Program-made: the position numbers and the translations under genes
From: Psammoneis japonica
Lineage: Eukaryota
Direction: 5' to 3'
Length of the DNA: 64,000 nt
Assembly (NCBI GenBank): GCA_008632985.1
Contig: QPGO01000099.1
Span: 1-64,000, forward strand
Shown here: one piece after another, positions 14,696-44,438 of the stretch
Numbering within the stretch: the stretch's first letter is position 1
Layout of the letters: every line of letters starts with the position of its first letter
Notes under the pieces: model-generated
Told to the model about the DNA's origin: nothing
What the model saw: the letters and a program-made list of their open reading frames with translations, nothing else
Database searches by the model: none

Positions 14696-14697
14696 AG

Positions 14698-19958: not shown

Positions 19959-20368
19959 CTCCAGTGCTTCAGCCCTTGCAGCACAGACAAGGTTTTGCGA
20001 TGGGTGTCTTCAGCAAGACAAAACATGCACTCGCAATCACCTCCCTTGCCTCCCCATGCCGCCAGAATCCCAACCTTGGAGCCCACATCCAACTTGTCTT
20101 CTACAAACTTGCAAAATCTTGGCCAAACCAACTCCATTTTGTCAGCATTGGCCATGCGGGGATCAGTGAGCTTGAGTTTGTGCGACTCCTGGGAGGCCCT
20201 CTCCATCTCGTCGGTCCACTTGGTTCCTTCTGGAGGCTTGATGCACTCGTCAAATTTGCCGAGTGCAGACTTGTCATTTGGATCTGCTGCAACAGCTGAG
20301 AGCTGCAGCGTGCCACACTTCTTCCCTCCATGCTCCACATCAACATGAAAAAGCACACATCGTCCTGC
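19959..20368 (-). pseudogene. Second, inverted copy of the truncated DEDDh exonuclease domain
   Basis: ORF 19952-20356 is nearly identical to the 12905-13309 translation. Confidence 0.55.
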
Positions 20369-23300
20369 TGCAATGCACAGCCGCTGATGAGAGTCAGTGC
20401 ATCACGGCAACGTGTTGCAGCCTTTAAATGTCACAAAGGGCGTGACAAAAACAACCTTTTGTCTGCATGCATCCTGCGTTGTGAATTCACAGCGGAGTGG
20501 TTCATCGCAACCATCAGGCAGGAGGCCAGGGGTTCGAAACCCTGAGTGGGAGTTGTCTGCAGCAACGTTGATCACTGTCGAACGCGCAAAACTCTGTGCA
20601 AATCTGTGTGTCCCTTCGCACGTACCAACACTGTTCCTCCAAAACTGTGCAGTGTCAGCAGACGTTGGTAAAGAGCCGCATGGATGCGCGACACATGGGA
20701 AGGAGTGCAACACACAGCTGCCAATGAGAGTCAATGCATCACGGCGACGTGTTGCAGCCTTTGAATGTCACAAAGGGTGTGACAAAAACAACCTTTTGTC
20801 TGCATGCACACTGCACTGCAATCCAGTCATCATGGGTCACAGAATTTGTTTGACGAGGCGCTCTCCGAGCTGGCGCCGGCACGTCATCAGGTGGTTCAGC
20901 AGGTCAGAGGCCAAGGGAGCAATGCCGGACTCCAAATCAGCGTCCTCCATGGATGCATCATCGGAGCTGAACGCAAGCATGGAGATGTCCATTGTGTCCA
21001 TGACATTGCCGATGCTCATGTTGCCAACACCGCAAAAGACGGTTGTCTCGCACTGAAAAGAAAAAAAACAACAGCAAAAAGAGCAAGGGCAAGCTGAGGG
21101 AATGTCGAATGGGAAAAAGGACACTCTGATGCAACAGAACAACAGCACTGTGTCACATTCTTGCCGATTTGTTTGCTGTTCCACCAGATTCTGCCAGCAG
21201 GATGCCGAAAACAATTGACACCATGTCAGTCGGTCGCGCCTGTCATGATGCAAGAAATGCCGACACGACAGCAGGTGAGACACGATGTGAAAAAACAACG
21301 CCAAGGCAACAACAAACCAAACCAAGCCATCACAGCGCACCTTGCCGTGTTGACAATCACCCCGCATGGCGTTGGGGTGCTGTCTGTTGCAATGGCTTGG
21401 AACCGCGACGTTCCATTTGTTGTGTTGTTGATGGTGGCCCCGTTTCAATGCACGCAAAAAAAAATTCGCGCGTGTCGCTGTGGCAAACAAAGAGTTAAAA
21501 CAAGACAATGACATTTCCTGCAAATTGCCAGATGCAACACATCTTGCCAACACTTTTCGTGGAGACGAGCAAGATCAAAAAGTGCTCATGTCACAAGGAC
21601 AAAATTGTCTTGTCTGAAGACACTTTGAAAAAATTGGTGACAGATTGGCGCACAATGCGTGCCCACTTCACACTGAAAAAAAATGAAAGTCTTGCAACAC
21701 CCGCGCAGTTGCAGTGTAAAATCTGCAAGGCAAGACACAAACAAGCAATGTCACTCTCAAAAGACATTTGGAAATTAAAGCGGCCCTGTGTGGCCCACAC
21801 AAAACAACAACAGTCATTGCCAGCGGCACAATGCAGTCAACGTGGAGACAACATTGATGCTGTCAATGTCTGTTGAACAACTCAACTTGACAAATGACTC
21901 CAATGTTTGTTCTCACATTTTCCACTTTTTGCACTTTGTTCTGGTTTCCTTTGCGCTTGTTCTTTGAGCAAAGTGCACCACAGCAGGTGTTTGAAAGGTT
22001 CCTTTGCACTGAGTGATGTTTTTGATGTATCCCAGAGAAACAGATTGATGTTGAGTTCAGGATGCCTTGCAAAGTGCAATGTGTTTTTGCCAAAAATGAG
22101 CACATTGCATTGTGCACACACACCACAGAAGGTGAAATGGTGCTGAACTTGTTGGCGCCATTGGGTTTTGTCATTCAGTGCACAACATGCGTGATCACAG
22201 CCACAACTTGCTGCAGCAACTGTGGTCTTCCCAGGGCCAGCTGGTGACAAATTGACTTTTGCAGCTGAGTTTGCGTCCAGTGCTGTGAAAGCTGTTGTTG
22301 GCAAGTGAGCTGAAGCTCAAGAAGGCCTTGAGGGAACGGAGCAAAGAGACAGAACACACGGTCAATTTGGGCTTGCCTTGAGAGAACATTGCAGCTGGAA
22401 ACAAAATGCAACGTCTCACATTCAGCCAGCAAGCCAGTCATTCAGTTGGCGGGTTGGCTGGTCGGTTGGTTGGCTGATCGGCTGGTTGGTTGCCCACCGA
22501 CCCACCGACCTGCCCAGCCGCCGACCCGCCAACCCGCCGACCCGCCGACCGGCCAACCTGCCAACCCGCCAACCTGCCAACCAACCGACCCACCAACCCG
22601 CCAACCCACTGACCAACCAACCAGCCGCACATGACCCAAATCGTGCACAAAAACGACATTTGCGCGATTTTTGCGCGGTCTCTGACTTTCAAATGGTTTT
22701 TCACCACCAAAAGCACAGATTCGCACAAGTTCTGATGTTTTGGACTTCAATCTTTTGCAGTTGGAAAATTTTCTTTCAAATGGATGCTGCCAAAGCCTGT
22801 GATGGGAGAGGGTTCTCACGCATTGCAGAACTGCATCAGAGTTTTCACGGTGAGATCCACTGGTTCTTCCCACACTCATTTGTCCAAGGAACTTTTCAAA
22901 AGGATTTCAAACCTGTTGAGAAGAAGATTGAGTGGGTTGCATTATTTTTGTTTGGATGCATTGCTGTGGCTGTCACTTGATTGGATTCAATGGAGCAACA
23001 ATGTGGTCCAAGGGCCGCTGGTCCTGTTGTTGACTCCATTCACAGCGCCACATTTTCAATGTGTTTGGCACTCAGCTGGAAAATGTTGGTGTCGAAGAGT
23101 TCACTGACATTCTTCATGGGGCAATTGCTGAGCCCCATCTCATTTCTTCATTGCTGGACAATGAGTCATGTCTCTTGGTTGGTTGGTTGGTTGGCTGGTT
23201 GGTTGGTTGGTTGGTTGGTTGGTTGGCTGGCTGGCTGGTTGGTGGGTTGGTTGCTTGGTTGGCATGTCGGTGGGTCAGCGGGCTGGCAGGTTGGTGGGTT

Positions 23301-26300
23301 GGCGGGTCGGCAGGTCAGAAAGGTCGGCGGGTCGGTGGGTCGGCGGGTCAGTGGGTCAACGCATTGCAGCCCCAGGTGGGAGCTCGCAGCACTGACGTGT
23401 GACACAAACAATTTTTGTCATCCATCGCATGTTTTTTGCGCGTGCATTTCTGCATGTGACATTTCAAAAAAATTGTCCAGACTCGCTGTTTTGCAAAGCC
23501 CCAGACGTTTTACATGACAAATTTATAAAAACAACAATGCACCAGTTGCATTCTTCAATGTCTGAAGAATGTGCCCAGCCAAGCAATGAATGATGTTCTT
23601 CAATCATGGGCAAGTTTGTGCGTTCGCAAAACTGCCTCATTTTCTGTTGGCGATCATCGACATTTTCATTGCCCAATGATTTTACTGTGGAGCTCGCACG
23701 AAGAATTCTGCAGGCCCGATGTCACACGGATTCCAACCTGCGTCTGGAACGCGTCGGTCTTTGGGTCAGCGCTGAAGTTCCCTTCCATCCCATGCCCTGA
23801 TTGTCCTTGTCAGTGACGGGCTCCAGTCCTGGTGGGATGTTTTGTGACACTCGGCCCGCAGAATTCTGTGTGCGAGCTCTGCAGTGCAAGAATTTCATTG
23901 ATGGACATTTTCATCTTCAAGTGCATTTGTGGCTGTCCACACTCAAAGTTTTTTGGCAATCTGCCTGCCCTGCGCCATTCTCAATGCATTTGCAAATGAT
24001 GCAGAAGAAAAAAATGTCAAAAACTGTTGAACGGATCACCCAGCAATTGCACTGCAAAATGATGCACAGTTCCACCAAAGTCACATTGAAATGCATGTGC
24101 ACAACACACAGCACAATCATCCAAAAAAATGTTGATGTCACAGTTCAGCAGTGCAAGGTCCCGTCCAGAGCTAGAGCGCATCCTCTGAACCTTTTTTGAG
24201 CCTTAGAAGTGATCAAAGTGGCTGAACCTTCATCGCCAACCAACTGACCAACCAACCAACCAACCCACCAACCAACCAACCCACCAACCAACCAACCAAC
24301 CAGCCAACCAACCAGCCGACCAGCCAACCAGCCGACCAGCCAACCCGCCAACTGAATGACTGGCTTGCTGGCTGAATGTGAGACGTTGCATTTTGTTGCC
24401 AGCTGCAACATTCTCTCAAGGCAAGCCCAAATTGACTGTGTGTTCTGCCTCTTTGCTCCATTCCCTCAAGGCCTTCTTGAGCCACAGCTTGCTTGCCAAC
24501 AACAGCTTTCACAGCACTGAATGCAAACTCTGCTGCGACAGTCAATTTGTTGCCAGCTGGCCCTGGGAAGACCACAGTTGCTGCAGCAAGTTGTGGCTGT
24601 GATCACGCATGTTGTGCACTGAATGACAAGACCCAATGGCGCCAACAAGTTCAGCACCATTTCACCTTCTGTGGTGTGTGTGCACAATGCACTGTGCTCA
24701 AAGAACAAGTGCAAACAAAAGCAGAGCAAAGCACCACAATTTCAAATCACAAGATTGAAATTTGCTCTTTGATTTTTGGTTTCTCTGAATGAGTTCTCAG
24801 TGGCCTGAAGCTTCTGCGCTGCTTCCACAGACAAAAGGCTCATCAGGGAACATGATCGTGACAACAGACAGTCCGAGTGCATTGGCATTGATGCACGAGA
24901 TGCCAGCATTGTCTGTCAATTGCATTTGCAAAACAATGCCACCCTTGAAGCCAACGGCTGCTCTTCTTTTGTTTTGCACTTGTCAGATCCTCTCTGAAGT
25001 GTCCTTTTTGCCTTGCTGTGGTCTTCATCTGTGCCAGCAAGCTTCATTTCTGTGTTTCATTTCTCTCTTTCATCTTTTGCAGACATTTTGCAACAGCCAA
25101 GTTTGCGCTGGCATTTTGTCCCCATTTCCCCCTTCCCACTTCCTTTTCCTTTCTTGGGCTTGAATTCCTTTCAGCCTTGCTTTTCAGCCTTTGCCCGCTG
25201 CCCATCACCTGAACCCCAAACCTGTCCATGTGTGCTGTCTGGGTGTGGCAAAGGTTGTGGGTCATGAGCCCAAATGGGCAGGGTCCTTTTTGTTGTCTTG
25301 TCCGTGCACACCGTGTGTGTGTGACATGCCATCAACTGGTTTTTGGTGTTTTGCAGGCCTTGGCAAAAACACCTTGCACTTTGCAAGGCATCCTGAACTC
25401 AACATCCATCTCTTTCTCTGGGACACGTCAAAACATTGCTCAGTGCAAAGGAACCTTTCAAACATCTGCTCTGGTGCACTGTGCTCAAAGAACAAGCGCA
25501 AAGAAAAGCAAAACAAAGTGCAAAAAGTGGAAAATGTGAGATTGAATTTTGCTCTGTGATTTTTTGTTTCCCGGAATGAGCCCTCAATGGCCTGAAGCTT
25601 CTGCACTGCTTCCGCAGACAAAAGGCCTTTTGGAGAATGTGGTCGTGACAACAGACAGTCCAAACACCGCTGGCACTGATGCATGAAATGGCAACATTGT
25701 CCGTCAATTGCCTCCCCCAATTGAACATTGGAGTCATTTGTCAAGTTGAGTTGTTCAACAGACATTGACAGCATCAATGTTGTCTCCACATTGGCTGCAT
25801 TGTGCCGCCGGCAATGACTGTTGTTGGTTTGTGTGGGCCGCACAGGGCTGCTCCAATTTCCAAATGTCTTTTGAGAGCGACATTGTTTGTTTGTGTCTTG
25901 CCTTGCACATTTTGCACTGCAGCTGCGCGGGTGTTGCAAGACTGTCTTTTTTTCCAGTGTGAAGTGGGCATGCATTGTGCGCCAATCTGTCACCAATTTT
26001 TTCAAAGGGTCTTCAGACAAGACAATTTTGTCCTTGTGACATGATCACTTTTTGATCTTGCTTGCCTCCACAAAAAGTTTTGGCAAGATGTGTTGCATCT
26101 GGCAATTTGGAGGAAATGTCATTGTCTTGTTTTAAAGGCAGGACTTTGTTGCAGGATTTTAAAAGGCTCAATTTTCTTCACAGCAAGTTGGCTGAATGCT
26201 TCTGCGACAACGTTCACCATGCCCTCGTTGTGTGCTGCATCAATTTGCCCACCCATGACTCTGTTTGTTGTGTCTTGTGAACCACGCACATGTCAGTGTG

Positions 26301-26353
26301 TTGGCCAAACAGTGCGTTCCGGAATTTCCCAAGTGTTTCCACCATGGACAGAA
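19964..26353. repeat. Right arm of the large inverted duplication
   Basis: Reverse complement of 7206-13309, with an extra ~445 bp at ~20370-20815. Confidence 0.9.
23815..24182 (+). mobile_element. MITE family, degenerate full-length copy (right arm)
   Basis: gacgggctccagtcct...gtcccgtccagagctagagcgcatc, colinear with 39597-39986. One TA counted. Confidence 0.75.
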
Positions 26354-26904
26354 GCTCTTTTTCCGTTCTGATGGTGAGCACCAAATTTCGGGCATGATGG
26401 TGGTGCAGTTTTTGACATGTGATGCACTCCAGGTTGAGGGGGGAGTCACTTTGCCTTTTTGATGGAATTCCAGAAAATGAGGGTGGTTTTTCAGGAAGGA
26501 ATGCCTGAAAGTGCTCAGGGGAGGGGAACAAAAAGCAAATGGAGCGCGGCAATCTGTGGCAATTGTGGTCAGGCGGGTGTGCTTTTATCCCCATGACTGT
26601 CGTGGCACGCACTGTGCAACACATGGACACATCAACACAAATTGCCCCCTGTGGAAGAGCAAGGAAAGAAGAGACATCACCTTTAAATCAGCCGCGTTAA
26701 TGTTGCTTGTGCGAGGCTCTGTTTTTGCCTTGTCCTTTGCTCCAGCGCCATTGTGGCTTGCACCTGTGTCCACGCCACACAAGAAGGAGTGCACGACACA
26801 CTGTGTTCTGCACACAAGACAGGTCAAAGGAAAGAGCGAGCATGACCACTCAATCCGCCATTTTTTTAGCAGCCTTGTGAGGCTCTACTTGTGAGGTTCT
26901 GCTT

Positions 26905-27155
26905 GACGGGTTCCAGTCCTGGGTGGGACTTTTTGTGACATTGGGCCCGCAGAATTCTGCGCACCGTGTTGCGAGAATTCAATCAATGGACATCTTTGTC
27001 TCAAACATCAAATGAATGACCAAGTTTGTGGCACAAGCATGACCATTGCAGCTTGACATTTTTGCAAATGCGCCTGCCCCACACCATTCCCAAGACATCC
27101 ACGAATGGCGCAGAAGAAAGAAATGTCAAAAGTTGTTGGACGGATCGCTCAACAA
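26905..27155 (+). mobile_element. MITE family, partial copy (left ~250 bp), TpA-converted
   Basis: gacgggttccagtcctgggtgggact...aaaagttgttggacggatcgctcaa, colinear with 39597-39850. Confidence 0.8.
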
Positions 27156-28619
27156 GAGCATCTTTGCCAGCGAGTCGTGAACACAAACCTGTGTCCGTGT
27201 GTCTTCTGATGCAAATGAGATTCACAAAAAATCATCATTTTTGGTGCATCGTAAACATGTTTTTTGCGCTGATGACCCTTTTCAGATTTGTGGCTCATGA
27301 AAGTGAATCGCAAATCAGGGAGACGCCTCAAATCTGTTGAAACTTGAACAATGAACATCACATGAGTGAACGAACAAATGCATCAAAAACAACATGCATC
27401 GCGCAGATGTTCAAAATGTGCATGGACGTCAACTGGGCCAGTGCTCAAAATTTGCACAAAATGACACAGAGAGATTGTGCTTCCATGTCTGCACACGCAA
27501 TCTTGATTGTTGATTTAAAAGAGTCACATTTGCCNNNNNNNNNNNNNNNNNNNNNNNNNNNNNNNNNNNNNNNNNNNNNNNNNNNNNNNNNNNNNNNNNN
27601 NNNNNNNNNNNNNNNNNNNNNNNNNNNNNNNNNNNNNNNNNNNNNNNNNNNNNNNNNNNNNNNNNNNNNNNNNNNNNNNNNNNNNNNNNNNNNNNNNNNN
27701 NNNNNNNNNNNNNNNNNNNNNNNNNNNNNNNNNNNNNNNNNNNNNNNNNNNNNNNNNNNNNNNNNNNNNNNNNNNNNNNNNNNNNNNNNNNNNNNNNNNN
27801 NNNNNNNNNNNNNNNNNNNNNNNNNNNNNNNNNNNNNNNNNNNNNNNNNNNNNNNNNNNNNNNNNNNNNNNNNNNNNNNNNNNNNNNNNNNNNNNNNNNN
27901 NNNNNNNNNNNNNNNNNNNNNNNNNNNNNNNNNNNNNNNNNNNNNNNNNNNNNNNNNNNNNNNNNNNNNNNNNNNNNNNNNNNNNNNNNNNNNNNNNNNN
28001 NNNNNNNNNNNNNNNNNNNNNNNNNNNNNNNNNNNNNNNNNNNNNNNNNNNNNNNNNNNNNNNNNNNNNNNNNNNNNNNNNNNNNNNNNNNNNNNNNNNN
28101 NNNNNNNNNNNNNNNNNNNNNNNNNNNNNNNNNNNNNNNNNNNNNNNNNNNNNNNNNNNNNNNNNNNNNNNNNNNNNNNNNNNNNNNNNNNNNNNNNNNN
28201 NNNNNNNNNNNNNNNNNNNNNNNNNNNNNNNNNNNNNNNNNNNNNNNNNNNNNNNNNNNNNNNNNNNNNNNNNNNNNNNNNNNNNNNNNNNNNNNNNNNN
28301 NNNNNNNNNNNNNNNNNNNNNNNNNNNNNNNNNNNNNNNNNNNNNNNNNNNNNNNNNNNNNNNNNNNNNNNNNNNNNNNNNNNNNGACCCACCAAACCCC
28401 AACCCCAGCCGCACAAGCCCCAGGCACAATTGACTCCAATCAAGTGACAGCCACAGCAGTGCATCGCCACGGCATCCTTCAACAGGTCTGCGGGTCGGCG
28501 GGTCGGCGGGTCTGCGGGTCGGGGATCAGCGGGTCGGTGGGTCGGCGGGTTGGTGGGTCGGCGGGTCGGCGGGTCGGTTGGTCAGCAGGTCGGCGGGGCG
28601 CCCCACCCAATTTCCTCAT

Positions 28620-29460
28620 TTGCCATCTGCCATCCACCATCCACCATCCAGCATCTGCCATCCACCATTCACCATTCGCCATCCGCCATCCACCATCCAC
28701 CATCCAGCATCTGCCATCCACCATTCGCCATTCACCATTCACCATTCACCATCTGCCATCCGCCATCCACCATTCGCCATCTGCCATCCGCCATCCACCA
28801 TCCACCATCCAGCATTTGCCATCCGCCATCCACCATCCACCATCCAGCATCTGCCATCCACCATTCGCCATTCACCATCTGCCATCCGCCATCCACCATT
28901 CGCCATCTGCCATCCGCCATCCACCATCCAGCATTTGCCATCCGCCATCCACCATCCACCATCCACCATCCAGCATCTGCCATCCACCATTCACCACTCG
29001 CCATCTGCCATCCACCATCCACCATCCAGCATCTGCCATCCACCATTTGCCATTCACCATTCACCATCTGCCATCCGCCATCCACCATTCGCCATCTGCC
29101 ATCCGCCATCTGCCATCCACCATCCAGCATTTGCCGTCCGCCATCCACCATCCACCATCCACCATCCAGCATCTGCCATCCACCATCCACCATCTGCCAC
29201 CCGCCATCCAACATCCAACATCCACCATCCACCATCCACCATCCACCATCCACCATCCACCATTTGCCATCCACCATTCACCATCCACCATCCACCATTC
29301 AGCATCCGCCATCCGCCATCCACCATCCACCATTCAGCATTTGCCATCCGCCATCCGCCATCCACCATCCACCATCCAGCATCTGCCATCCACCATCCGC
29401 CGTCCACCATTCACCATCCACCATCCACCATTCAGCATCTGCCAACCGCCATCCACCACC
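28620..29460. repeat. Degenerate 7-bp satellite (CCATYYR), block 1
   Basis: Continuous ccatcca/ccatccg/ccatctg/ccattca/ccattcg/gcatctg units. Confidence 0.97.
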
Positions 29461-30726
29461 ACAAGCTGGTGTGCGGGCATGATGTTGAATCTCGAAAGTC
29501 GTCCCAGAGGCAAAAGGTCGAGGTAAAACTGACTGCGATCTACAACAAATGCCAGGAGCATTTGGCGAAAGACAGGGGCGTGCTGCTTGATTCTGTCAAG
29601 GAACACCGTACATTTTCTACGGCGAGGATTCAAAATTGGATTTCAGTGGTTCACCCAAGACTCAGAGACAGTTTGAAAGAAGCCAAACGCCTGGCCAAAA
29701 GTGGCACTCGCACCATTCTTAGCCACTTCCATCAGGCGGAACCGGCGCACACAATTTCTGCCACACATCCTTTTAGGGTGCACTGTTCTCCGTCATCAGG
29801 CATCCAGTCCGGCGCTCATTTCTCACATGAAAGAAAAGTGCAGCTGGTCCGACCAGGCACATGATTCTGTCAACTGGGACGTGCATGCCAAATTGATGTC
29901 TCGAAACATCCGTCAGAAAGTCAGCACCGTCAAGTTAGTGCAATGCCTTCTCCCCACCAACAAAATCGTTCACAGACACAATCCGGTTCGTCCGGACTGT
30001 TGCATTCACTGTCAGGACCCGAACGAAGACAGAGACCACATTCTCCGATGTCCTCATGACGAAGCCTGGCGCAGAAAATTTTTACAAGGCCTGCGCAAGA
30101 AGTGCGATGACATTCATGCATCTCCGTCATTGAGAGATCTGATTATTTCGGCTTTAGAGGCATGGTTCCGAAGTGAGCTTCTGCACTCTGAACAGTTTCA
30201 TCACAGTGTGACGGCTGCCTTCCATTCTCAGGGCGAAATCGGATGGCGTCATTTGTTCAACGGACGATTTTCAGTCCATTGGAATGTTGCACAAACCTCT
30301 CATCTTCTGTCGAGCGGCATTCATCAAACTTCAACTGAGCAACAGCAATGATTGGATTGGGCTGCAACAATCGGGAATTACATGTGGGAACAGTGGTGGG
30401 ACCTGTGGGACTCTCACAACGACGCTGCACACGGGCACGATTCGGAAACCAGGAAATCTTCTCAGAGGAGAGATGCGGAAGCGGAGGTTAAAGCCATTTA
30501 CTCCCGAACGGATGATTGTCTGGCCAGAGACAAAGCGCTCCTCCTGGATTCGGTGGAAGACCACCTGACACACTCAACACACAGGCTTCGAAACTGGCTG
30601 GCTATGTTCAAACCAGTCTTTAAATCGAGCATGCGGGAAGCCAAAAGGTTGGCTGCACGAGGCACAAGAACCATTGCAAGTTGTTTCGGCGCGGAGTTAC
30701 CCTCGGGTGACGCCAATCTTGGCTAA
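29461..30726 (+). mobile_element. 3' remnants of diatom-type non-LTR retrotransposons (zinc-finger C-terminal region), two related ends in tandem
   Basis: VNWDVH..KLVQCLLPTNKIVHR..CCIHCQDPNEDRDHILRCPH..QGEIGWRHLFNGRFSVHW..WDLWDSHNDAAHG resembles a zf-RVT-like C-terminus. In-frame TGA at 30349. The terminal ~90 aa occur twice in diverged form. Confidence 0.7.
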
Positions 30727-30929
30727 TCGCCATTTACTCCTGCCGCACCAACAGTGCACTGGGGGTGTGGGTTAGCTTGTTGCCGGAGTTGCAGGGTGGA
30801 AGCATGGCAGCACTTAAAACACAGATGTTTGGTTTTGCTTTTAGGGTGCACTGCAAGTGTGGGTTAGCCGGCACCGGTGTTGCTGGGCAAAGGTGCAGTG
30901 GCACTTAAAAATTAGAGTTTGGTTTTTTT

Positions 30930-33900
30930 TCATCTGCCATCCACCATCTGCCATTCACCATCCACCATCCGCCATCCACCATCCGCCATCCACCATCTGC
31001 CATCCACCATTCGCCATTCACCATTCACCATTCGCCATCTGCCATCCGCCATCTGCCATCCGCCATCCGCCATCCGCCATCCACCATCCACCATTCAGCA
31101 TCCGCCATCCGCCATCCACCATCCAGCATCTGCCATCAACCATTCACCATTCGTCATCCACCGTTCACCATCCAGCATCTGACATCCACCATCCGCCATT
31201 TGTCATTCGTCATTTGCCATCCACCATCAACCATCCGCCATCCGCCATTCAGCATTTGCCATCTGCCATCCACCATCCGCTGTCCAGCATCTGCCATCCA
31301 CCATCCGCTGTCCAGCATCTGCCATCCACCACTCACCATCCATCATCTGCCATCCACCATCCGCCATTCACCATCCACCATCTGCCATCCACCATCCGCC
31401 ATCCGCCATCCGCCATCTGCCATCCACCATCCACCATCCACCATCTGATTTCCACCATCCGACATTCGCCATTCACCATTGGCCATCTGCCATCCGCCAT
31501 CCGCCACCCGCCATCTGCCATCCACCATCCACAGTCCACCATCCGCCGTCCAACATCCACCTTCCACCGTCCACCATCCACCATCCACCATCCACAATTC
31601 AGCAATTGACGCCCGCCATCCACCATCCAGCATCTGCCATTCACCATCCACCATCCGCCATCCACCATCCGCCATCCACCATCTGCCATCCACCATTCGC
31701 CATTCACCATTCACCATTCGCCATCTGCCATCCGCCATCTGCCATCCGCCATCCGCCATCCACCATCCACCATCCACCATCCACCATTCAGCATCCGCCA
31801 TCCGCCATCCACCATCCAGCATCTGCCATCAACAATTCACCATTCGTCATCCACCGTTCACCATCCAGCATCTGACATCCACCATCCGCCATTTGTCATT
31901 TGTCATTTGCCATCCACCATCAACCATCCGCCATCTGCCATTCAGCATTTGCCATCCGCCATCCACCATCCGCTGTCCAGCATCTGCCATCCACCATCCG
32001 CTGTCCAGCATCTGCCATCCACCACTCACCATCCATCATCTGCCATCCACCATCCGCCATTCACCATCCACCATCTGCCATCCACCATCCGCCATCCGCC
32101 ATCCGCCATCTGCCATCCACCATCTGATGTCCACCATCCGACATTCGCCATTCACCATTGGCCATCTGCCATCCGCCATCCGCCACCCGCCAACCGCCAT
32201 CTGCCATCCACCATCCACAGTCCACCATCCGCCGTCCAACATCCACCTTCCGCCGTCCACCATCCACCATCCACCATCCACAATTCAGCAATTGACGCCC
32301 GCCATCCACCATCCAGCATCTGCCATCCACCATTCACCATTCACCATCCACCATTCACCATTCACCATCTGCAATCCACCATCTGCCATCCACCATGCAG
32401 CATCTGCCATCCACCATCCGCCATCTGCCATCCACCATTCGCCGTTCACCATTCACCATTCGCCATCCACCATTTGCCATCTGCCATCCGCCATCTGCCA
32501 TCCGCCATCCGCCATCCACCATCCACCATCCAACATCCACCATCCACCATCCGCCATCCACCATCCACCATCCAACATCCACCATTCAGAATTTTCCATC
32601 CGCCATCCACCATCCACCATCCAGCATCTGCCATCCACCATTCATCATCCACCATTCACCATCCACCGTCCACTGTTCACCATCCGCCATCCGCCATCCG
32701 CCATCCACCATCCACCATCCACCATCCACCATCCGCCATCCACCATCCACCATCCACCATCCGCCATGCACCATCCGCCATCCGCCATCCACCATCCACC
32801 ATCCGCCATCCAATGTCCGTCATCCGCCATCTGCCATCCGCCATCCAGCATCCACCATTCGCCATTCGCCATCCAGCATCTGCCATCCACAATTCGCCAT
32901 TTGTCATCCACCATTCACCATCTGCCATCCGCCATCCACCATCCGCCATCCGCCATCCACCATCCGCCATCTGCCATCCACCATCCACCATCTGCCATCC
33001 GCCATCCAACATCCACCATCCACCATCCAACATCCACCATTCAGAATTTTCCATCCGCCATCCACCATCCACCATCCAGCATCTGCCATCCACCACTCAT
33101 CATCCACCATTCACCATCCACCATTCACCATCCACCATCCACCATTCACCATCCGCCATCCGCCATCCACCATCCACCATCCACCATCCGCCATGCACCA
33201 TCCGCCATCCGCCATCCACCATCCACCATCCGCCATCCAATGTCCGTCATCCGCCATCTGCCATCCGCCATCCAGCACCCACCATCCACCATTCAGCATT
33301 TGCCATCCGCCATCCACCATCCAGCATCTGCCATCCACCATTTGCCATTTGCCATCCACTGTTCACCATGCAGCATCTGCCGCCCACCATTCCCCATTCG
33401 CCATCCGCCATTTGCCATCCACCATCCACCACCCAGCATCTGCCATCCGCCATCTGCCATCCACCATCCACCATTCAGCATCCGCCATCCGCCATCCACC
33501 ATCCACCATCCAGCATCTTCCATCCAACACTCACCATTCGTCATCCGCCGTTCACCATCCAGCATCTGCCATCCACCATTCACCATTCACCATTCGCTGT
33601 TCACCATCCACCATCCGCAATCCACCATCCGCCATCCGCCATCCGCCATCCGCCATCCACCATCCGCCATCCACCATCCACCATCCGCCATCCACCATCC
33701 ACCATCCACCATCCACCACCCAGCATCCGCCATCTGCCATCCACCATCCGCCATCCACCATCCAGCTTCTGCCATCCACCATCCAGCATCCAGCATCTGC
33801 CATCCACCATTCACCATTCGCCATCCACCATTCACCATCTGCCATCTGCCATCTGCCATCTGCCATCTGCCATCCACCATCCATCATCCACCACCCAGCA

Positions 33901-36268
33901 TCCGCCATCTGCCATCCACCATCCAGCTTCTGCCATCCACCATCCAGCATCCAGCATCTGCCATCCACCATTCACCATTCGCCATCCACCATTCACCATC
34001 TGCCATCCGCCATCTGCCATCCGCCATCCGCCATCCACCATCCACCATTCAGCACCCGCCACCCGCCATCCACCATCCAGCATCTGCCATCCACCATTTG
34101 CCATTCGTCATCCACCGTTCACCATCCAGCATCTGACATCCACCATCCGCCATTTGTCATTCGTCATTTGCCATCCACCATCAACCATCCGCCATCCGCC
34201 ATTCAGCATTTGCCATCCGCCATCCACCATCCGCTGTCCAGCATCTGCCACCCACCATTCACCATTTGCCATCCACCACTCACCATCCATCATCTGCCAT
34301 CCACCATCCGCCATTGACCATCCACCATCTGCCATCCACCATCCGCCATCCGCCATCCGCCATCCGCCATCCGCCATCCGCCATCCACCATCTGATGTCC
34401 ACCATCCGACATTCGCCATTCACCATTGGCCATCTGCCATCCGCCATTCGCCACCCGCCATCTGCCATCCACCATCCACAGTCCACCATCCGCCGTCCAA
34501 CATCCACCTTCCGCCGTCCACCATCCACAATTCAGCAATTGACGCCCGCCATCCACCATCCAGCATCTGCCATCCACCACTCACCATTCACCATCCACCA
34601 TTCACCATTCACCATCTGCAATCCACCATCCGCCATCCACCATGCAGCATCTGCCATCCACCATTCACCATTCGCCATTCACCATCCGCCATTTGCCATC
34701 CACCATCCGCCATTCACCATTCACCATTCACCATCCACCATCTGCCATCAGCCACCCACCATCCACCATCCGCCATCTGCTGTCCACCATCCACCATTCA
34801 GCATCCGCCATCCGCTGTCCACCATCCACCATCCAGCATCTGCCATCCGCCATTCGCCATTCGCCATCCGCCATCCAGCATCTGCCATCCACAATTCGCC
34901 ATTCGTCATCCACCATTCACCATCTGCCATCTGCCATCCGCCATCCGCCATCCGCCATCCGCCATCCACCATCCGCCATCTGCCATCCACCATCCACCAT
35001 CTGCCATCCGCCATCCACCACCCAACATCCACCATCCACCATCCGCCATCCACCATCCAACATCCACCATTCAGAATTTTCCATCCGCCATCCACCATCC
35101 ACCATCCAGCATCTGCCATCCACCATTCATCATCCACCATTCACCATCCACCATCCACCATTCACCATCCACCATCCACCATTCACCATCCGCCATCCGC
35201 CATCCGCCATCCACCATCCACCATCCACCATCCACCATCCGCCATGCACCATCCGCCATCCGCCATCCACCATCCACCATCCGCCATCCAATGTCCGTCA
35301 TCCGCCATCTGCCATCCGCCATCCAGCATCCACCATCCACCATTCAGCATTTGCCATCCGCCATCCACCATCCACCATCCAGCATCTGCCATCCACCATT
35401 TGCCATTTGCCATCCACCGTTCACCATGCAGCATCTGCCGTCCACCATTCCCCATTCGCCATCCGCCATTTGCCATCCACCATCCACCATCCAGCATCTG
35501 CCATCCGCCATCTGCCATCCACCATCCACCATTCAGCATCCGCCATCCGCCATCCACCATCCACCATCCAGCATCTTCCATCCAACACTCGCCATTCGTC
35601 ATCCGCCGTTCACCATCCAGCATCTGCCATCCACCATTCACCATTCACCATTCGCTGTTCACCATCCACCATCCGCAATCCACCATCCGCCATCCGCCAT
35701 CCGCCATCCACCATCTGCCATCCACCATCCACCATCCGCCATCCACCATCCACCATCCACCATCCACCATCCACCACCCAGCATCCGCCATCTGCCATCC
35801 ACCATCCGCCATCCACCATCCACCATCCAGCTTCTGCCACCCACCATCCAGCATCCAGCATCTGCCATCCACCATTCACCATTCGCCATCCACCATTCAC
35901 CATCTGCCATCTGCCATCTGCCATCTGCCATCTGCCATCCACCATCCATCATCCACCATCCAGCATCTGCCATCCACCATTCACCATTCACCATCCGCCA
36001 TCCACCATCCACCATCCGCCATCTGCCATCCACCATCCACCATTCAGCATCCACCATCCACCATCCACCATCAACCATCCAGCATCTGCCATCCACTGTT
36101 CACCATTCGCCATCCAGCATCTGCCATCCACAATTCACCATTTGTCATCCACCATTCACCATCTGCCATCCGCCATCCACCATCCGCCATCTGCCATCCA
36201 CCATCCACCATCCGCCATCCGCCATCCGCCATCAAGCATCCACCATCCAGCATCCATCACCCGCCATC
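30930..36268. repeat. Degenerate 7-bp satellite (CCATYYR), block 2, with higher-order duplications
   Basis: ~5.3 kb of the same heptamer. Rare marker variants recur (acaattcagcaattgacg at ~31594, 32280, 34527; cagaattttcc at ~32587, 33042, 35072). Confidence 0.97.
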
Positions 36269-36926
36269 TGTGTCACTTCCCTCCGTGCAACAACTGAACT
36301 CCGGTGCACATCCGATTCACACACCATTTAAGTTTGTTGCAACTTGAACCACCAGCTCTCACTTTGCCATTTGGGGCAATGGTCCAGGCATTCTTTGCAC
36401 TGAAATTTGTGTCATCTCTTTGTGAAATGATTGTTGCATGTGATTGTGCATCCTTTGTTCAGTGAAAGTGAATGGCATGCATTGCTGCACTTTTTTTTTT
36501 AATGTCACAGAAACAGAATGGCAAATTTTAATGTTTCTCAGCCATGCAAAGATTGGATTTCTACAGATTGTTGATGGAACTCATTGCACTGTCGCCAAAA
36601 CAGAGTTGCCATTTTGGCTCTGTTTCAGTTCATTTGTGATGCATTTCTTTGCACCACAACAAAACCAGGTTGCCAATTTTTTTGCATGTTCGTTTTTCAT
36701 TAATTTGGACCGCAGCGTTACAACAATGTTGCACATCAACACACAACTGTTTTCCCTCCTCTTTGTTGCCCCATTGTGCTCTCTCCTGTCGGCTTCATCT
36801 ACTCCCACATCCCATGTTGTCTTCATGCTCCAATGTTTGCTTAGCGTCTTGTGTCTCTCCCCTTCCGGCAGGGCTTGATTGCAAAAACAACAAACTCTCT
36901 CGGCAACGGGTGCATTTCCAACCCGG

Positions 36927-39073
36927 TCAGTGCGTCAGCAAGAGGACGTTGACATGCAAGAAGGTCTCTTCCATTGGACTGTTGACTCTGAATGAACCCA
37001 TGCAATTGCATTGGAAATGAGCTGTCCATTCCATGTCGGGATGGCAACGAAGGCAGAGCATGCTGCGTCCCTCCTCGGTCTGACCCATCAGGGCAATCGC
37101 AAACAGCTTCCCCATCTTTTGGTCACAGGTCAAACCAGACAAGGTGCAAAAACCGTTGCGCAGCACAACAGGAAGAAAGTCAGATCTCTGACCAGGTCTG
37201 CACCACTGAGATCCAAAAATGTGGTTGGCCAAATCGTTGAGTCTGCCTTTGGCAGAGTCGGGAAGATCGTTGATGAGGACAGATGGCGTCTGAGGGACTG
37301 TGCCACCTTGAACAATGTGCATTGCATTGGGTGACGCAAAACCAAACACACCCTGAGGATTGTCTGCCATCCGCAGGGGAAAGAAAGCATTGTCAACTGT
37401 GTGTTGGCCAAACACCTTGTGAAGCATGGTGGAGCAAACGTTCATGTGCCTGACAACGGCACTGCATGCCTTTGAACGGACAGATTGGGCTTTGGACTTG
37501 GACATCACTGTGTCCATTTGTGATTCAACAAACAGATGCCATGGGCTTTTGGTGGATCCAGGGGGTGGTCCCAGAGCTGCAACGGTTGGACGCTCCATCA
37601 ATTCCTGAGAAAAGAGCTGCAACGTCCAGGAAGTGAGACAAGAATGACCAATGCGACATGCATTTTTGCGTCCTGAAACACGGCCGGTTGCTTGAGCAGC
37701 ATCAACAGCATTGCCCAACAAAGTTACGTTGTGTGCAATCATGCATTTGAAACACTGCTGATCTCCCAGTTGGACTCGGCAGACAGGAGGAGATTCTTTT
37801 GCTTGAATTGCAGACACAAGAAGGACAGATGCAATGCAATGGTAATTTCTGACGTTCATCCCAAATGCGGGATTCTTTGTTTTGTAACCTGTGCATTTCG
37901 GAACAAGTCCAAGAGGGCGCCATGCTCCAAAACAATGGCAGGCCAATGCATTGACAAGAGTTACAGAGAACACACCTGGCTCTGTTGAATGAGGTGCGAC
38001 CTGTCCTTTCCCAGTTTTGTCTGTGTGGTGCGGTGCAAACACATGAAAGGAACCTGACACGACAGGAACGTGACCGCCACGCAAAAAGTTGCAACAGGTT
38101 TCTCCATCCTTCATTTTGGCTTTGTTGCAAAGTTTCCAGTCACCATTCTTGTCAAGCAAGGGAGCGCTGGATGGCTCCTGAGACCAACGTGAATCAGGGT
38201 TCATGTCTAGATGGAAGTTGTCTGCAAAAAATCCTGCAGTTGAAGGGAAAAGTTGCACACGGGGACACCGGGAGAAATCTCCTGGGGTGGGTCATTTTTG
38301 AATTGGTTGATGATGGACACGGACTCAAGTTGGACTTGCTTCAGCACAGGAGCAACAACGCTGGGCAACATCAGCTTGAGCTTCAACATGAAAGTTTGAG
38401 AAGAGGGAATTTGTCGGACAACAGACAACCCACCACTCGAGAATTCCTCTTGCACAGTTCTGAGAAGTTCGTCGGTTGCACTGATTGGGACACCCTTGGA
38501 GTGGCACAGATTCAACATGCAGACCATGGAAATGGTTTTGCTGCTGCAAACTTTGGGCACGAGGAGGTCCTTGTTGGTGGAAAGGCGGCCCACTTGATCC
38601 AGTGCAGCTGATGAGCCTGATGTGGCAACCTCGGTGGCGGCACCCGGGGTGTCAAAAGCGGATGCACCATCATGAAATTGATCAGGAACAAATTCTTCAT
38701 TGTCAGGGAACTGAGTGTCTGAAACATCATCAGGTTGGGGCACAATGGTGTGGGAAACACGCAACTCCAGAGCATGTGAAACGGCACAATTGGAGCGCAA
38801 TGGCCTGTGATTGAGTCCAGTGTAACCTTGTGGAGTTGGCCCAGTGTTGGCATTGGACCCGGTTGCAACAAATTGAATGGGAGGAGAGCCGAGAGCAGAT
38901 GAGGCAGCAACATCCCCCTGGTCTTCGGATTCTGCCATTGCCGGGTGTCTGCCATGAGCATCGTCTGACTGTTGGGAGGAAACGTTTGCCACAAACGGGA
39001 CAATCATTTCCAACAATGGAGGGGGGCACCATTGTTCATTTTCTTGAAAGAATGTTGAGATGAGAATGTGCAA
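36927..39073 (-). pseudogene. Decayed Plavaka-like transposase
   Basis: Motif order HTDKTG..TEPGVFSVTL..WRPLGLVP..RNYH..LLGNAVDAAQATGR..R..HSC..VDNAFF..ASPNAMHIVQGG resembles the diatom Plavaka-type proteins I recall. Frameshift near 38230; nearly Tyr-free. Confidence 0.55.
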
Positions 39074-39596
39074 AAACGGTGCATGGCAGGTGACAAGATT
39101 GTGTTGGATGAGTCAACTCATGTGTCAGCATGCAACATTGTGCCTTGATTTAACGCACAACATCGGTTCTCTGAACGCCAGCACACGGTGCTTGCATCAA
39201 ACAATTGACAATGTAAGCCAAATCCGACTGTCCGCGGTGACAGAAATTTTGCCATGCTGGCACGCATCTCAGATTGTTGCCCTCCCAGATGACACACAAA
39301 ATGACATTCCATTTTGAACACAAATTACATGTCTCTTGTGTGTGAAGCATGTGAATGTAAAATGCTCAGGCAGAAGGGATTTCATGGGTGTTTGGACCAT
39401 GGGGACATGCAAACGGGACATGCATCATAAACTCCCTCTGTGGACTCAGTGCTGGTTGCACGACAGCACAGTGGTTGCAGATTTGCAGAAAGATTGTTTA
39501 ATTTGACATTCAAATGATGGCAACATTTTTGCCAAAAATCATCCATTGTGTTGTGATTCATTCATCACAATGAAAAACATGGACAGCACAAAAACA

Positions 39597-39986
39597 GACG
39601 GGTTCCAGTCCTAGGTGGGACTCCGTGTGACATTGGGCCCGTAGAATTCTACGTGCGAGCTCCGTAGTACGAGAATTTAATTAACGGATATATTTATCTT
39701 CAACATCAAATAAACGGCCAAGTTTGTGGTACAATTATGCCTCTTGCCACTCGACATTTTTGCAAATACGCCCGCCCTACGCGATTCTTAAGACATCATA
39801 GAATCGCGCTGTAACAAAAAATGTCAAAAGTTGTTGGACGGATCGCTCAATGAGTGTACCACAAAATGATACAAAATTTCACAAAAGTCTCGTACAATTC
39901 AGCGTGCGCGACATACGGTGCGATCCAAAAAACTATCGATGTCACAGTTCAGTAGTACGAGGTCCCACCTAGAGCTGGAACGCGTC
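39597..39986 (+). mobile_element. Intact ~390 bp MITE-like element with imperfect ~30 bp TIRs and candidate 4-bp TSD (aaca)
   Basis: Left end gacgggttccagtcctaggtgggactccgt; reverse complement of right end gacgcgttccagctctaggtgggacctcgt. aaca at 39593-39596 and 39987-39990. Non-coding, with at least five other copies in the window. Confidence 0.85.
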
Positions 39987-41104
39987 AACAATGACATTGC
40001 AACACTGACGCAAGTCTTGTCAGTGTTGCAAAACATTCAATTTTGGACAAATCTGTGCTTTTGGTGGTGAAAGCTCACTTTTGTGCACGACTTGGGTCAC
40101 GTGCTGCTGGAACATGTCTTTTCATGGTTGCTGTTTGCAGGTGCTGGAAATGTCCATTGATGACGTGCGGTCATGGGTTCAATCAATGTGGTCATTTTGA
40201 GCAACACAGACAGGCAGCCTTTAAAAGGAAAGTTTTTTAGAATGATTTTTCTCCTTTGTTGATGAATGTCTTTCATGCAATGTCCACCAGCCTTGTGACA
40301 TGGATGCCTTTTTTGTGTGTCAAAGGATTTCAGGCATGATGCACTGCTTGCAGTCTTTGCGTCTTTTGCAGCTGTCACTGCCGCAGACCCTCCCCGTGCC
40401 CAATGTGGGTTGACAGAGACACTGCCGGGCAGAGAAACTCCAGTGCAATCATGTTGACCGCTTTGTGAATTGTGTCAGACCAGAGACACATTGGCTTTCG
40501 ATTGCATGACACTGACAATTCTGACATCAGGCAGCACAGCAAGTTTAAAGTTGCAAATTTGGAGGGAGATGAGGAGTCAGACCCAGATGACAAATTGGCG
40601 CCAAAATGCTGGTGGCACTGCAGCACCAGTGCAATGCTGGGATGGCGGGGAACAAGTGTCATTTGTTCATTGCATTTAAAATCACTTTTGTGGGTAAAAT
40701 GGTCTCCAAATGCCTTCATGGGTTGGACAAACATGCACGTCATTCTTGAATGAGTTGGAAATGAATTTAGAAATCACAGTCATGCAGAGAAAAACAACAA
40801 AGAGTGGCAAAATTGGTGAAAAGATCACATGTTCACAGTTGTGGTTGTTTGCAAATTACACTGCAGTCAAAGAAAGGGAGTCGCCGGTTAGAGCATCAGG
40901 TGTTTGGTGTTGAAAGAGAGGTTTGAAATTTTGCCCCACAATTCACAACAGAAACAGAGGCAGTGGCAAGGGAGAAGAAAAAACAGAGTGGGGAGGTGGC
41001 TGGAGATCAACCAACCAGCCCAAGGCTGGCTGTGGCATTGATGTGGGCAGGAGCCAGCAGAGATTGCCAGCCCACAAAGAGAGAGGCAGAAGAGGTGGCA
41101 TGTG

Positions 41105-43790
41105 GAGAGAGGAGCTGTCCCCAACAGCAAAGTTCCTTGTCAAAGTGGACATGGCAAGCAGTGGGAAAGTGCCACAGCTCATGTGGAAAAAGACAGCCGG
41201 TGGCAATTTCAGCAAGTGAGGCTGGGCAGGATTGTGGCAAGACTGGGCAAAGAAGTGTGCCATGAACGCAAATGATGCAAAAAGGAACACCGCCACACAA
41301 ACAACACAGAAGAGTGCAATGGCTGGCAAGTGTTTTGTGATGAATGGCATGTTGAGTGTGGCGACACTTGCCATGACCCTTCTTTGGTGCAGTTGTTTTG
41401 ACAGAGCAGCAAGCCAAGGAATTGTGCTGTCAGAAAAGAGAGCTGTTGCAAAAAATCAAAGAGGGGAAGGAAAAAGAAGAAGGCTTGATCAGCTGATGAA
41501 GAAATGTTCTTGGTGACTTGGGAGGATGAGGCAGTGGACACCATTGTGGGGGAGAAGCAAAGGAACAAGGAGGCATGTGCACAGTTCTGCAACAATGTCC
41601 TTAAAATCATGAAGAGTGCTGCGGCATGGAGAAAGAAAGCCGGGGTTGGGTGAGACCAAAGCTCCAGATCCAACTGCGGCAAGCTGCAAGGCTCTGGGGC
41701 TGTGGCACAAGGCCCTTCATGACAGTGCTGTTGGAGGGGGAGCAGACACTGGGGAGAAGGAGGAGGAGGAGGAGTTGAAACCAGCACCCAAGTGCATGGA
41801 CCCAACATGACAGCATGACTCATGGGATGATGCGGGAATGTTGTGATTCAACACCCTGCTTGTGCAAGTGAAGGAGGACAATGGTGCAGTGGCAGAAAGA
41901 AGAGGAGGGAAAGCAATGAAAAGGGCAAGGGAGCAAAGAAGAAGATGCCAGTGGAGAAAAAACAGGCAACAACAGGGCTTTTGAGTGACAATGAGGAGGA
42001 CAAGGAAACAGAAAAGGACAAGCGCAACAGGACAGTGAACAAGAGGAAAAAAGGAAGTGAAGATGGAAGCAACGACAAAGAAGAGGCAGAAAAGGAGCAT
42101 GCTCTGGTGCAAAAAGGGAGTGGAGCCTTTTGTCAATGTGAGAATGAAAAACAGCAAAGCAGTGCATTGGTGTTCATTGAAAACAATTTTAAACCAGGCA
42201 TGCAAAAATTCAGCATTCATTGAAAGACGTTTCATGCTGTTGTTTGACAAACAACTGGTGATGTGCATTCCACAAAACCAATCAAATGTGTTTGTTGGTG
42301 CAAATTGGTCTCATCATAAGGCTTTTCAATGTTGCAATGAAGAGGTAAAAAAGGCAGGCACTCTGAAGGGGAAACAGGTGGAATTTTCAAAGTCAAAGGT
42401 TTTGTCTCATGGGACACGGTGGGTGGCCACGGAGAGAGCTGTTCCCAAAGGCAAAGTTCCTTGTCAAAGTGGACATGGCAAGCAGTGGCAAAGTGTCTCT
42501 TGGCTCATTCAGAAAAAGACAGCTGGTGGCAATTTCAGCAAGCAAGACTTGGCAGGATCATGGGAAGACTGGGCAAAGAAGAAGTGCATCATGAGTGCAG
42601 TCAACAGAAGAACACAATGGCTGGCACAAGTGTTTTGTGATGCATGGCATGTCAATTGTGGCAATGCTCAACACTGCCCTTCTTTGGTGAAGTCGTGATG
42701 ACAGAGCAGCAAGCTGAGGAATTGCACGGGGTCAGAAGAAACCCGCCACCAAAAAATGAGGGGACAAGAGAAAGAAGAAGGATCAAGTGGCAGATGAAGA
42801 GCCACTCCTGGCAACTTGGGAGGAGCAGACAGTGAGCACAATTGTGAAGTGGAAGAGTGGCAACAAGGAAGCATGTGCGTGGTTCTACGACAACATCCTA
42901 AAATTCACAAAGAGTGCTGTGGCATGGAGAAAGGGCAAAAGGAGTCAGGAGAGACCAAGGCTCCAGACCTGAGTGCAGCAAGCACCGAGGTTCTGGGGCT
43001 GTTGAAATTGGAAAACTGCTGGAATGATTGGGGGCACAAGGCCAAACATGAGAAGACTGTTGGAGGGGGGGGGGGGGGGGACTCAGGGGACAAGGAGGAG
43101 GAGGAGTCAAAACCAGCACCCAAGCACATGATCCCAACACAACAGCACAACTCACGGAATGACAAAGGAGTGTTGCAATCAATGCCTTGCTTGCAAAAGT
43201 GAAGGAAGCCAGGGCAAGTTAGGAAGGTGTGCAGTTCGACACATGGCACAGCAACAGCAAGAAGAGGGAGAGCAACAAAAGGGGCAGGGGAGCAAAAAGG
43301 AAGAAATTGCCGGTGGAGAAGAAGGCAAGAAAACAGGCAACAATGATGGACCTTTCCAGTGACAGCAAGGTGGACGAGGAAGGGGTGGTGGACAAGAACA
43401 GGAACAACAAGGACAGAGAAGATGAGGAAGAAGGAAGCAAAGGTGGAGGCAACAATGAAGAAGAGGCAGAAAATGGGCAAACTCTGGTGCAAAGAGGGAG
43501 CAGAGCAAGTTGTCAATGCAAGAGTGGAGCACGGCAAAGCAATGCACCAATGTTCATTGAAAACAATTGTGAACTGGGAATGCAGCAATTTGGTGGTCAT
43601 TGAGAGATGTTCATCATCCCATTGATTGACAATGAACCTGTTTGTTGTCACAGATTTTAAACCCCATGAACCTGTTTGTTGGCACAAATTGGTTTTGTCG
43701 AAAAGTTTTTTAATGTCGCAGTAAAAAGGCAACAAAGGCAGGCACTCTGAAGGGGGAACAGAGGTTGCATCCATGAGATCCAAAAAGGAG
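41105..43790 (+). repeat. Tandem ~1.3-1.4 kb duplication of a decayed, probably transposon-associated coding relic
   Basis: gcaaagttccttgtcaaagtggacatggcaagcagtgg at ~41128 and ~42451; aaggcaggcactctgaagggg at ~42351 and ~43735. Residual peptide WFYDNILK..AWRK..STEVLGLLKLENCWNDW. Confidence 0.75.
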
Positions 43791-44438
43791 ATGTACCAGT
43801 GAATGGACCCGGAATTGACTTTGTCAAAAGACCACTGAAAATGTCTCACCTCACACTGTCTGATCCGCCTGTCTCTGAACAAAAAGCAAACCCCACGTGG
43901 CACTGTCGCATCATTTTCACGAAGAATAATTTGATGTGAATCTTAAGAACCGTAATTCTGCTGTACATAGACGCTTCGTTGATTCCTTATCGTCTGTCTT
44001 GGCTGTGCTATGGCAATGGTGTGTTTCTATTGTCCGCGCGTTCATCGTGTTATATAATTGTGCAGGACATGAAACAGAATGAATTCTAATCCTTTCTACT
44101 CTATCCTTAGCCGCCAAAAACTGAACTTCTATTTTATTGGTGTTGAAATGAGTGGAGTGGCAACGCAGTTTTACCAATCTGTCGAGCCAGCCAAATGGCT
44201 GATCAGCAGTGATTATCCAACCCTGCTAGATAGGAGCAGCTAGGAATATTTTCCATGGCGGACCAAACGTGGCAATGGTAAACGGTGTTCTTCTCATGCT
44301 CGGTGGCCTATGGTGCGTGGGTCTTTCATCGTATCGAATCTATCGGATCTTTGCCGTTGTACCGCACACGATTCACCTTGACAATCACACTATGGACAGT
44401 ATATGCATTCATCATTGGAGCTTTTCATTTTCAGCAAA

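Follow-up and report, generated by a model that had tools for sequence, protein, structure and literature searches.

A TA-rich and probably young MITE copy inside a TA-erased diatom domain: an internal control, and a marker of time, for TpA-directed mutation

In Neurospora and other ascomycetes, RIP introduces C-to-T changes and thereby makes TpA from CpA/TpG. The process that marked the diatom DNA described here resembles RIP in that dense transitions are confined to repeats, with sharp edges and a strong dinucleotide signature, but its chemistry and direction are opposite, i.e. TpA is destroyed by A-to-G change. The fungal mechanism proper, with its C-to-T change at CpA and its excess of TpA, was rejected, as the repeats in question lose TpA and gain CpA/TpG. 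A targeted A:T-to-G:C mutator of DNA that acts at TpA has, as far as the accessible literature goes, been reported once, in an unrelated alga and in a preprint of 2026. According to the accessible text of that preprint, integrated giant-virus and virophage DNA in Bigelowiella natans undergoes hypermutation that is restricted to TpA, at 6e-7 as against 3.5e-10 per site per generation, and an adenine deaminase is proposed as the mutator (Mettrop et al., bioRxiv 10.64898/2026.01.13.699255).

As described in that text, the B. natans system and the diatom locus are alike in several respects. TpA is converted to TpG or CpA depending on the strand, which leaves blocks that are poor in TpA and rich in CpA+TpG; the excess over background is large (about 1000-fold as measured there, about 200-fold as estimated here); and foreign or repeat-derived DNA is affected, with gene regions being spared. 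They differ in the host, which is a chlorarachniophyte in one case and a diatom in the other, and in the kind of evidence, since the B. natans process was measured directly, in mutation-accumulation lines and on two viral insertions that are still TpA-rich, whereas the diatom process is read from sequence. Moreover, in the diatom the erosion has gone almost to completion across tens of kb, with CpG loss alongside it, and the accessible part of the preprint describes no young transposon copy that could serve as an internal control. Among the papers listed by our literature search none deals with TpA loss in diatom repeats, and the accessible preprint text does not contain the word 'diatom'; within these sources, the TpA-to-TpG/CpA signature is published only for B. 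natans.

The copy that provides such a control lies within a stretch of 64,000 nucleotides, which was analysed as a whole and is referred to below as the window (Table 1). Like typical MITEs, the element is short and non-coding, has TIRs and a probable short TSD, occurs in high copy number, has subfamilies that share its ends and forms a strong hairpin; it deviates from them in that its halves are mutual inverted copies over most of its length (122 of 154 aligned bases match), i.e. in being foldback-like. As ssDNA it is predicted to fold into one long hairpin of -65.7 kcal/mol, against a mean of -43.4 for 100 shuffles (z = -5.55). The 25-nt pattern of the TIR ends, with at most 3 mismatches allowed, matches 4 times in the window and 0 times in shuffles, and the end motif is kept in the sister copies. 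With its 390 bp the element is too short to encode a transposase, and an Rfam search of 39300-40300 gave no match. Its TA o/e is 0.89 and its CG o/e 1.43. The initial annotation, which had been made from the letters alone, had described a copy with about 26 TA in 390 bp, intact TIRs and a candidate TSD, placed between TA-poor flanks; counting bears this out, with 26 TA, TIRs of 30 nt that pair at 83%, AACA directly outside both TIR ends, 2 TA in the 200 bp to the left and 0 in the 200 bp to the right.

Table 1. Positions of the features discussed (coordinates within the window), with the observations that define them
Feature	Position	Strand	Basis or remark
Foldback-like MITE, unmutated and probably young	39597..39986	+	390 bp, 26 TA, 28 CG
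5' TIR	39597..39626	+	repeat finding: 30 nt, 83% complementary; 25-nt end pattern matches
3' TIR	39957..39986	-	pairs with 39597-39626 at 83%; end pattern matches
Left TSD copy, AACA	39593..39596	.	adjoins TIR end; joint 39592->39987 in run X1 gives weak support
Right TSD copy, AACA	39987..39990	.	adjoins TIR end; joint in run X1
Old sister copy, TA-erased	5502..5963	+	1 TA; blastn and alignment; 3' end cut off at (GACCCACC)n tract
Old sister copy, 5' 254 bp only	26905..27152	+	0 TA; blastn and alignment
Old sister copy in left arm of inverted duplication	9528..9884	-	0 TA; blastn and alignment
Old sister copy in right arm, duplicate of 9528-9884	23815..24182	+	1 TA; flanks CAGT/CTCT, no TSD
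3' fragment of sister copy, 88 bp	2944..3031	-	1 TA; 5/5 aligned TA sites converted
Second subfamily	9943..10337	+	5 TA; flanks GACC/GACC; blastn
Second subfamily, duplicate in other arm	23359..23755	-	4 TA; flanks GACC/GACC; blastn
Left arm of 4.6-kb inverted duplication	8716..13309	+	95-99% identical to 19964-25052
Right arm of inverted duplication	19964..25052	-	95-99% identical to 8716-13309
TA-erased, CG-poor, CA/TG-rich domain	3001..44000	.	limits from 1-kb bins only

The domain in which the element lies has an altogether different composition. TA is nearly gone from about 3-44 kb and again from 53-61 kb (o/e 0.00-0.28 per kb, the element's own kb excluded), where CA/TG is in excess (1.3-3.5) and CG is lowered too; by comparison, TA (o/e 0.38-0.85) and CG are ordinary at 1-3 kb, 44-53 kb and 61-64 kb. 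Over 39,831 sliding windows of 390 bp between 3001 and 44000, the element being left out, the mean number of TA is 1.67 and the maximum 11, as against the element's 26. The 2-kb flanks, pooled over both sides, contain 21 TA (TA o/e 0.08, CG o/e 0.35; Fisher p = 4e-16 versus the element), and the closest TA beyond the element are found 98 bp leftward and 236 bp rightward.

Genes were found in the islands of ordinary composition, namely a class C GPCR gene (44.4-47.3 kb, minus strand) and a D-lactate dehydrogenase gene (61.8-63.3 kb). The best match of the latter overall is unnamed (72% identity), and its named relatives are all from diatoms (Thalassiosira, Ditylum, Cylindrotheca, Mayamaea, Bacillariaceae; 58-64% identity), from which it follows that the host is a diatom and not Bigelowiella. 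In a protein atlas, the D-lactate dehydrogenase matched bacterial clusters only, which do not help to place the host. Across the 64 kb, 222 stop-to-stop ORFs of at least 100 aa were counted; a Pfam scan of 208 of these, which left out the 14 that lie inside the satellite at 31.3-36.3 kb, yielded no transposase and no reverse transcriptase, and no credible gene family among the ORFs of the eroded domain. ORFs in the eroded DNA are long because the stops TAA and TAG have been lost. As a side effect, 3001-44000 and 53001-61000 are filled with many long spurious ORFs in six frames, which would mislead gene finders.

Sister copies were identified by blastn within the window and compared in an alignment. 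About 5-6 further copies or fragments and 2 copies of a second subfamily were recovered, the eroded sisters being 68-86% identical to the intact element. The sisters at 5502 and 23815 had been said to keep about one TA each, and 1 TA was indeed counted in either; likewise, every substitution that had been listed for the comparison with the 5502 copy is present in the alignment. The second subfamily has only its ends in common with the element (about 70 bp at the 5' side and about 45 bp at the 3' side) and differs inside, which is the expectation for MITE subfamilies that are moved by one and the same transposase. Tracts that resemble (GACCCACC)n were observed at 5964-6020, 9900-9942, 10338-10520 and 23160-23358; they adjoin three of the MITE copies, and a second-subfamily copy sits within such a tract. 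Such tracts may be sites where the elements insert by preference, or they may belong to a composite repeat.

We consider it likely that the element is a young copy of an abundant, non-coding cut-and-paste MITE, which landed in a repeat-derived diatom domain that had already been rewritten; insertion after the erosion of the domain is the most likely order of events. A gene-free, repeat-derived domain would first have been rewritten by TpA-directed A:T-to-G:C change (TA to TG or CA, on either strand), for which an adenine-deaminase-like enzyme may be responsible, on the model of the proposal for B. natans, and CpG decay would also have eroded the domain before the element's arrival. A transposase acting in trans would have moved the foldback-like MITE with its 30-nt TIRs, leaving a 4-bp TSD, and through this later arrival all of the 26 TA and 28 CG would have been kept, where older copies in the domain lost essentially every TA. 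The sequence of the element by itself provides no immunity, as the five sister copies and fragments in the domain keep 0-1 TA.

The initial annotation had allowed both for insertion after the mutagenic episodes and for escape from them, and the former is favoured by the intact CG, the sharp edges and the converted sisters. The same observations make it unlikely that the copy is old and was shielded from the mutator, be it by a chromatin state, by a bound protein or small RNA, or by a need of the mutator for longer or transcribed targets: all five sisters of the family in the same domain are fully converted, the intact stretch stops within 17 bp of the TIR ends, and CG, whose decay follows another chemistry, has been preserved too. 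In addition, run X1 (see below) contains many near-identical pieces, as would be expected of a young cohort. In favour of shielding it can be said that the data do not give the insertion date directly and that erosion was not uniform, since 4-5 TA and 19-21 CG survive in the copies of the second subfamily within the eroded arms of the inverted duplication, and up to 11 TA per 390 bp in a patch at about 30.3-30.9 kb.

The abundance of the family and the integrity of the locus were assessed in run X1 (Logan contigs), which contains 71% of the sampled words of 38800-40800 and may represent the source sample. Its pieces that are at least 90% like the element number 2395, of which 357 reach 99% likeness or more, 749 fall at 95-99% and 1289 at 90-95%; pieces below 90% fall outside this count, so that eroded copies are not included in it. 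Summed word depth in the bins of the element amounts to 55,000-420,000, as compared to 47-50 for contigs of unique flank, which is not a copy number; we read these figures as those of a very abundant family. Furthermore, 26 contigs start at 39597 with unlike 5' flanks, i.e. many different insertion sites are represented. That the family may still be mobile, as had been suggested, is made plausible by the 357 pieces of at least 99% and by these 26 unlike flanks, which fall short of proof. Runs X2-X4, which are small and stem from the same sample as X1, cover only 39604-39877, at low depth.

Two contigs of run X1 join 39592 to 39987 and thereby skip 394 bases, i.e. the element plus one AACA, with 4 letters that fit either side. 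An empty site with a single aaca was what the initial annotation had proposed to look for, and these joints have that form; they are weak, in that the shorter side measures 25-30 letters against a guideline of 30-31 and that for some of them the part between is given as 'not known', and they may derive from paralogous copies of the host repeat instead of from an allele, since the DNA next to the element is repeated over 56 bp on its left and about 140 bp on its right. Other joints in the run have TG between 39594 and 39991, where the window locus has the CA of AACA, so that AATA may have been the original reading of the host repeat, and what the duplication copied may have been a site already mutated. 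A comparison of the 1-kb flanks with the window gave no paralogue beyond matches of 32-44 bp, and hence no empty site within the window.

These joints also bear on the question whether the element is an assembly artefact, the scaffold having received a consensus-like copy of some high-copy repeat by placement or patching, which we regard as quite improbable. The window does contain 5 N gaps, the flanks next to the element are the repeated ones mentioned above, and the unique contigs of run X1 end at 39540 and resume at 40128; among the contigs listed none bridges either junction, which makes the assembly the sole source for both. Nevertheless, a patched copy would hardly come with a perfect 4-bp duplication placed exactly at both TIR ends (chance 1 in 256 at a fixed offset), and the joints skip precisely the element and 4 bp. 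The copy is, moreover, not the consensus of its family, as follows from five positions: it is unlike nearly all depth in run X1 at 39685, 39756, 39768 and 39773, and unlike 92% of it at 39797. Most of the depth has TG at 39731, 39737 and 39768, positions at which the window copy has retained TA; the dominant subfamily seems to descend from a lightly edited master. At 39797-98 the window copy has CA and most pieces have TA or TG, so that the copy may carry one hit of its own.

Ectopic gene conversion, by which an intact copy would have overwritten an old and eroded one and restored TA and CG up to the limits of homology, is very improbable, even though the pool of donors is large and tracts that end at the ends of the element would yield the sharp edges that are observed. 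The eroded sisters, with their identity of 68-86% to the intact copy, are poor partners for recombination, and a partial, mosaic restoration is seen in 0 of the 5 other copies of the window.

Whether TA was lost or gained can be examined at the individual sites. In the case of 15 of the element's 26 TA sites, TG is found in one sister and CA in another; of the others, 4 have TG alone, 4 have CA alone and 3 have neither of the two, so that 11 of the 26 (8 with one outcome, 3 with neither) are uninformative on direction. A derived TA would call for a double change within a single lineage at every one of the 15 split sites, which strongly supports TA as the ancestral state and its loss as derived, as had been proposed on the basis of the letters alone. 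Divergence of the sisters from the element amounts to 49-51% of the bases at TA sites, 17-44% at CG sites and 7-20% elsewhere, and the first of these figures corresponds to one hit per TA; with a divergence of 7-20% at other sites, some columns of the alignment are uncertain. Taking all five sisters together, TA-site bases show 98 changes, of which 73 are A>G or T>C, the signature known from B. natans, which is also found at the sites that differ between the arms of the inverted duplication (15 with CA/TG and 9 with one hit). Both strands were hit about equally, with the hits intermixed; the 5502 copy, for instance, has 11 A>G and 10 T>C. A single counter-example, located in the 3' TIR, has TG in the element and TA in two sisters.

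The composition of the element taken by itself could point the other way, with a TA/AT of 0.90 and a (CA+TG)/(AC+GT) of 0.88 as compared to 0.55-0.61 and 1.23-1.29 in the gene islands. Nevertheless, the classical RIP direction, in which CA/TG would have mutated to TA in the TA-rich copy and the ancestral state would be that of the TA-poor copies, is extremely improbable despite these indices on the RIP side of the gene islands, as it conflicts with the split sites, with the CA-versus-TG differences at one and the same site that occur 15 times between the arms and once within the 5502 copy, and with the absence of TA from the whole domain and not just from the repeats of the element's family. 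We read the element as natively rich in TA and CG, the test on split sites outweighing its RIP-like indices.

The rate of TA loss relative to that of other changes can be approached by means of the inverted duplication, whose arms were compared over 4545 aligned columns. At 15 sites one arm has CA and the other TG, i.e. two independent hits on an ancestral TA; TA in one arm faces TG or CA in the other at 9 sites and is kept in both at 6. For CG, the corresponding numbers are 51 sites with TG or CA in the other arm and 113 sites kept in both, and the remaining 57 substitutions consist of 34 other transitions and 23 transversions. The same kind of difference was found in the 5502 copy, in which the two units of a 73-bp internal tandem duplication differ at one place only, by CA versus TG. 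Such CA-versus-TG differences between duplicates imply that the loss of TA ran both before and after these two local duplications. Per arm, about 0.77 of the TA sites that were present at the time of duplication have been hit, an estimate that allows for invisible double hits on the same strand, and about 0.6% of the other bases have changed. This suggests, as far as it can be read from the arms, a hazard for TA that would be about 200x as high as for an ordinary base and several times as high as for CpG, presuming that the differences between the arms are true independent mutations and not assembly errors or the outcome of gene conversion.

If the process is steady, zero or one hit in 26 TA would place the insertion of the element at less than about 1/10 of the age of the duplication. 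The suggestion that the element might act as a clock thus proved workable by way of the nearby inverted duplication and limited inside the family, where the read-out is binary, every sister being saturated already. As to the duplication itself, its arms enclose a core of 6.6 kb (13.3-20 kb) with long ORFs that have no Pfam matches. A 526-aa ORF in this core (16395-17972) is like unnamed diatom protein clusters (0.91) and provides a weak lead to a Copia-type reverse transcriptase (0.87). Arms and core together possibly represent either the decayed remains of a large element or a rearrangement that formed a palindrome.

The value of the element is that of an internal control and a time marker for a rare and barely described TpA-directed process. 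It constitutes a clean control in a diatom, because one family within one domain is available in an untouched and in a fully rewritten state; with this pair, artefacts of composition or sequencing are ruled out and the direction of change is settled for each site, and together with the nearby duplication it gives a first estimate of the rate. Recent insertions of so abundant a MITE can serve as practical reporters, with which it can be asked if the process runs continuously or in episodes and if it depends on chromatin state.

On a wider view, and rather as a tentative proposal than as something we hold to be probable, the diatom might possess an ongoing, adenine-directed editing of DNA in silent chromatin that erases TpA at about 200x background, with a MITE family that out-runs the editing. 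Within that proposal, which is to be taken with the same reserve throughout, the MITE would need only TA-poor termini, would amplify from lightly edited masters and would re-seed the edited domains. If this were true, dated young insertions would be natural reporters of the editor's rate, its choice of strand and its targeting rule.

The classification of the element was approached through its ends and target sites. The termini of the element are GAC...GTC; those of Ginger elements are TGT...ACA. The complete insertion events in the window (n=3), the other copies being truncated, are flanked by AACA/AACA, GACC/GACC and CAGT/CTCT, i.e. a 4-bp TSD is seen in 2 of 3, and the GACC/GACC flanks of the second-subfamily insertion, which lies inside a (GACCCACC)n tract, are present in both arms. 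Target-site duplications of 4 bp are described, in the accessible text of one paper, for Ginger1, Ginger2 (4-5 bp), AcademX (3-4), PHIS members (0-4) and piggyBac (PMC10045372). PiggyBac and Kolobok were rejected, as both need a TTAA TSD and the family of the element has AACA and GACC. In the case of Chapaev (CMC), the accessible description gives a TSD of 3-4 bp, with which the length fits, and termini that are invariably 5'-CAC...GTG-3' (PMC4079192), on account of which this candidate was rejected too. For Sola2 a 4-bp, AT-rich TSD (AWWT) is given in the corresponding text (PMC3627910); the length fits, and AACA and GACC are not AWWT.

The element is therefore unclassified, a new family of an ordinary kind of transposon, the candidates having been compared by ends and TSD. 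The initial annotation had found no common superfamily for a GAC...GTC terminus combined with a 4-bp non-TTAA TSD. The absence of a class stands; the TSD, which is based here on 2 insertions only, is not by itself a sign of novelty, since several superfamilies make 4-bp non-TTAA TSDs. An autonomous partner with the same ends was not found among the window ORFs (208 of 222 scanned). The TIR pattern had 0 matches in viral contigs, and the subterminal and internal patterns had 0 matches each in metagenome contigs, results that weigh little as these collections are poor in diatoms.

Some further repeats of the window deserve mention. A satellite with the 7-bp unit CCATCCA occupies 28630-29462 (about 119 copies) and 30937-36268 (about 762 copies); it has a strong GC skew of -0.7 and zero TA. 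Directly to the left of its larger block, at 30346-30900, lies the least eroded patch of the domain. In the gene island, a 108-bp tandem repeat at 51254-51807 (5.1 copies, 98% matches) sits within a coiled-coil-like ORF of 451 aa at 51144-52496(-). Finally, a perfect short hairpin with arms of 13 nt is found at 40013-40052, 26 bp beyond the right end of the element; the depth in the bin 40006-40072 is raised to about 19,000, which marks the hairpin as part of a different high-copy repeat.
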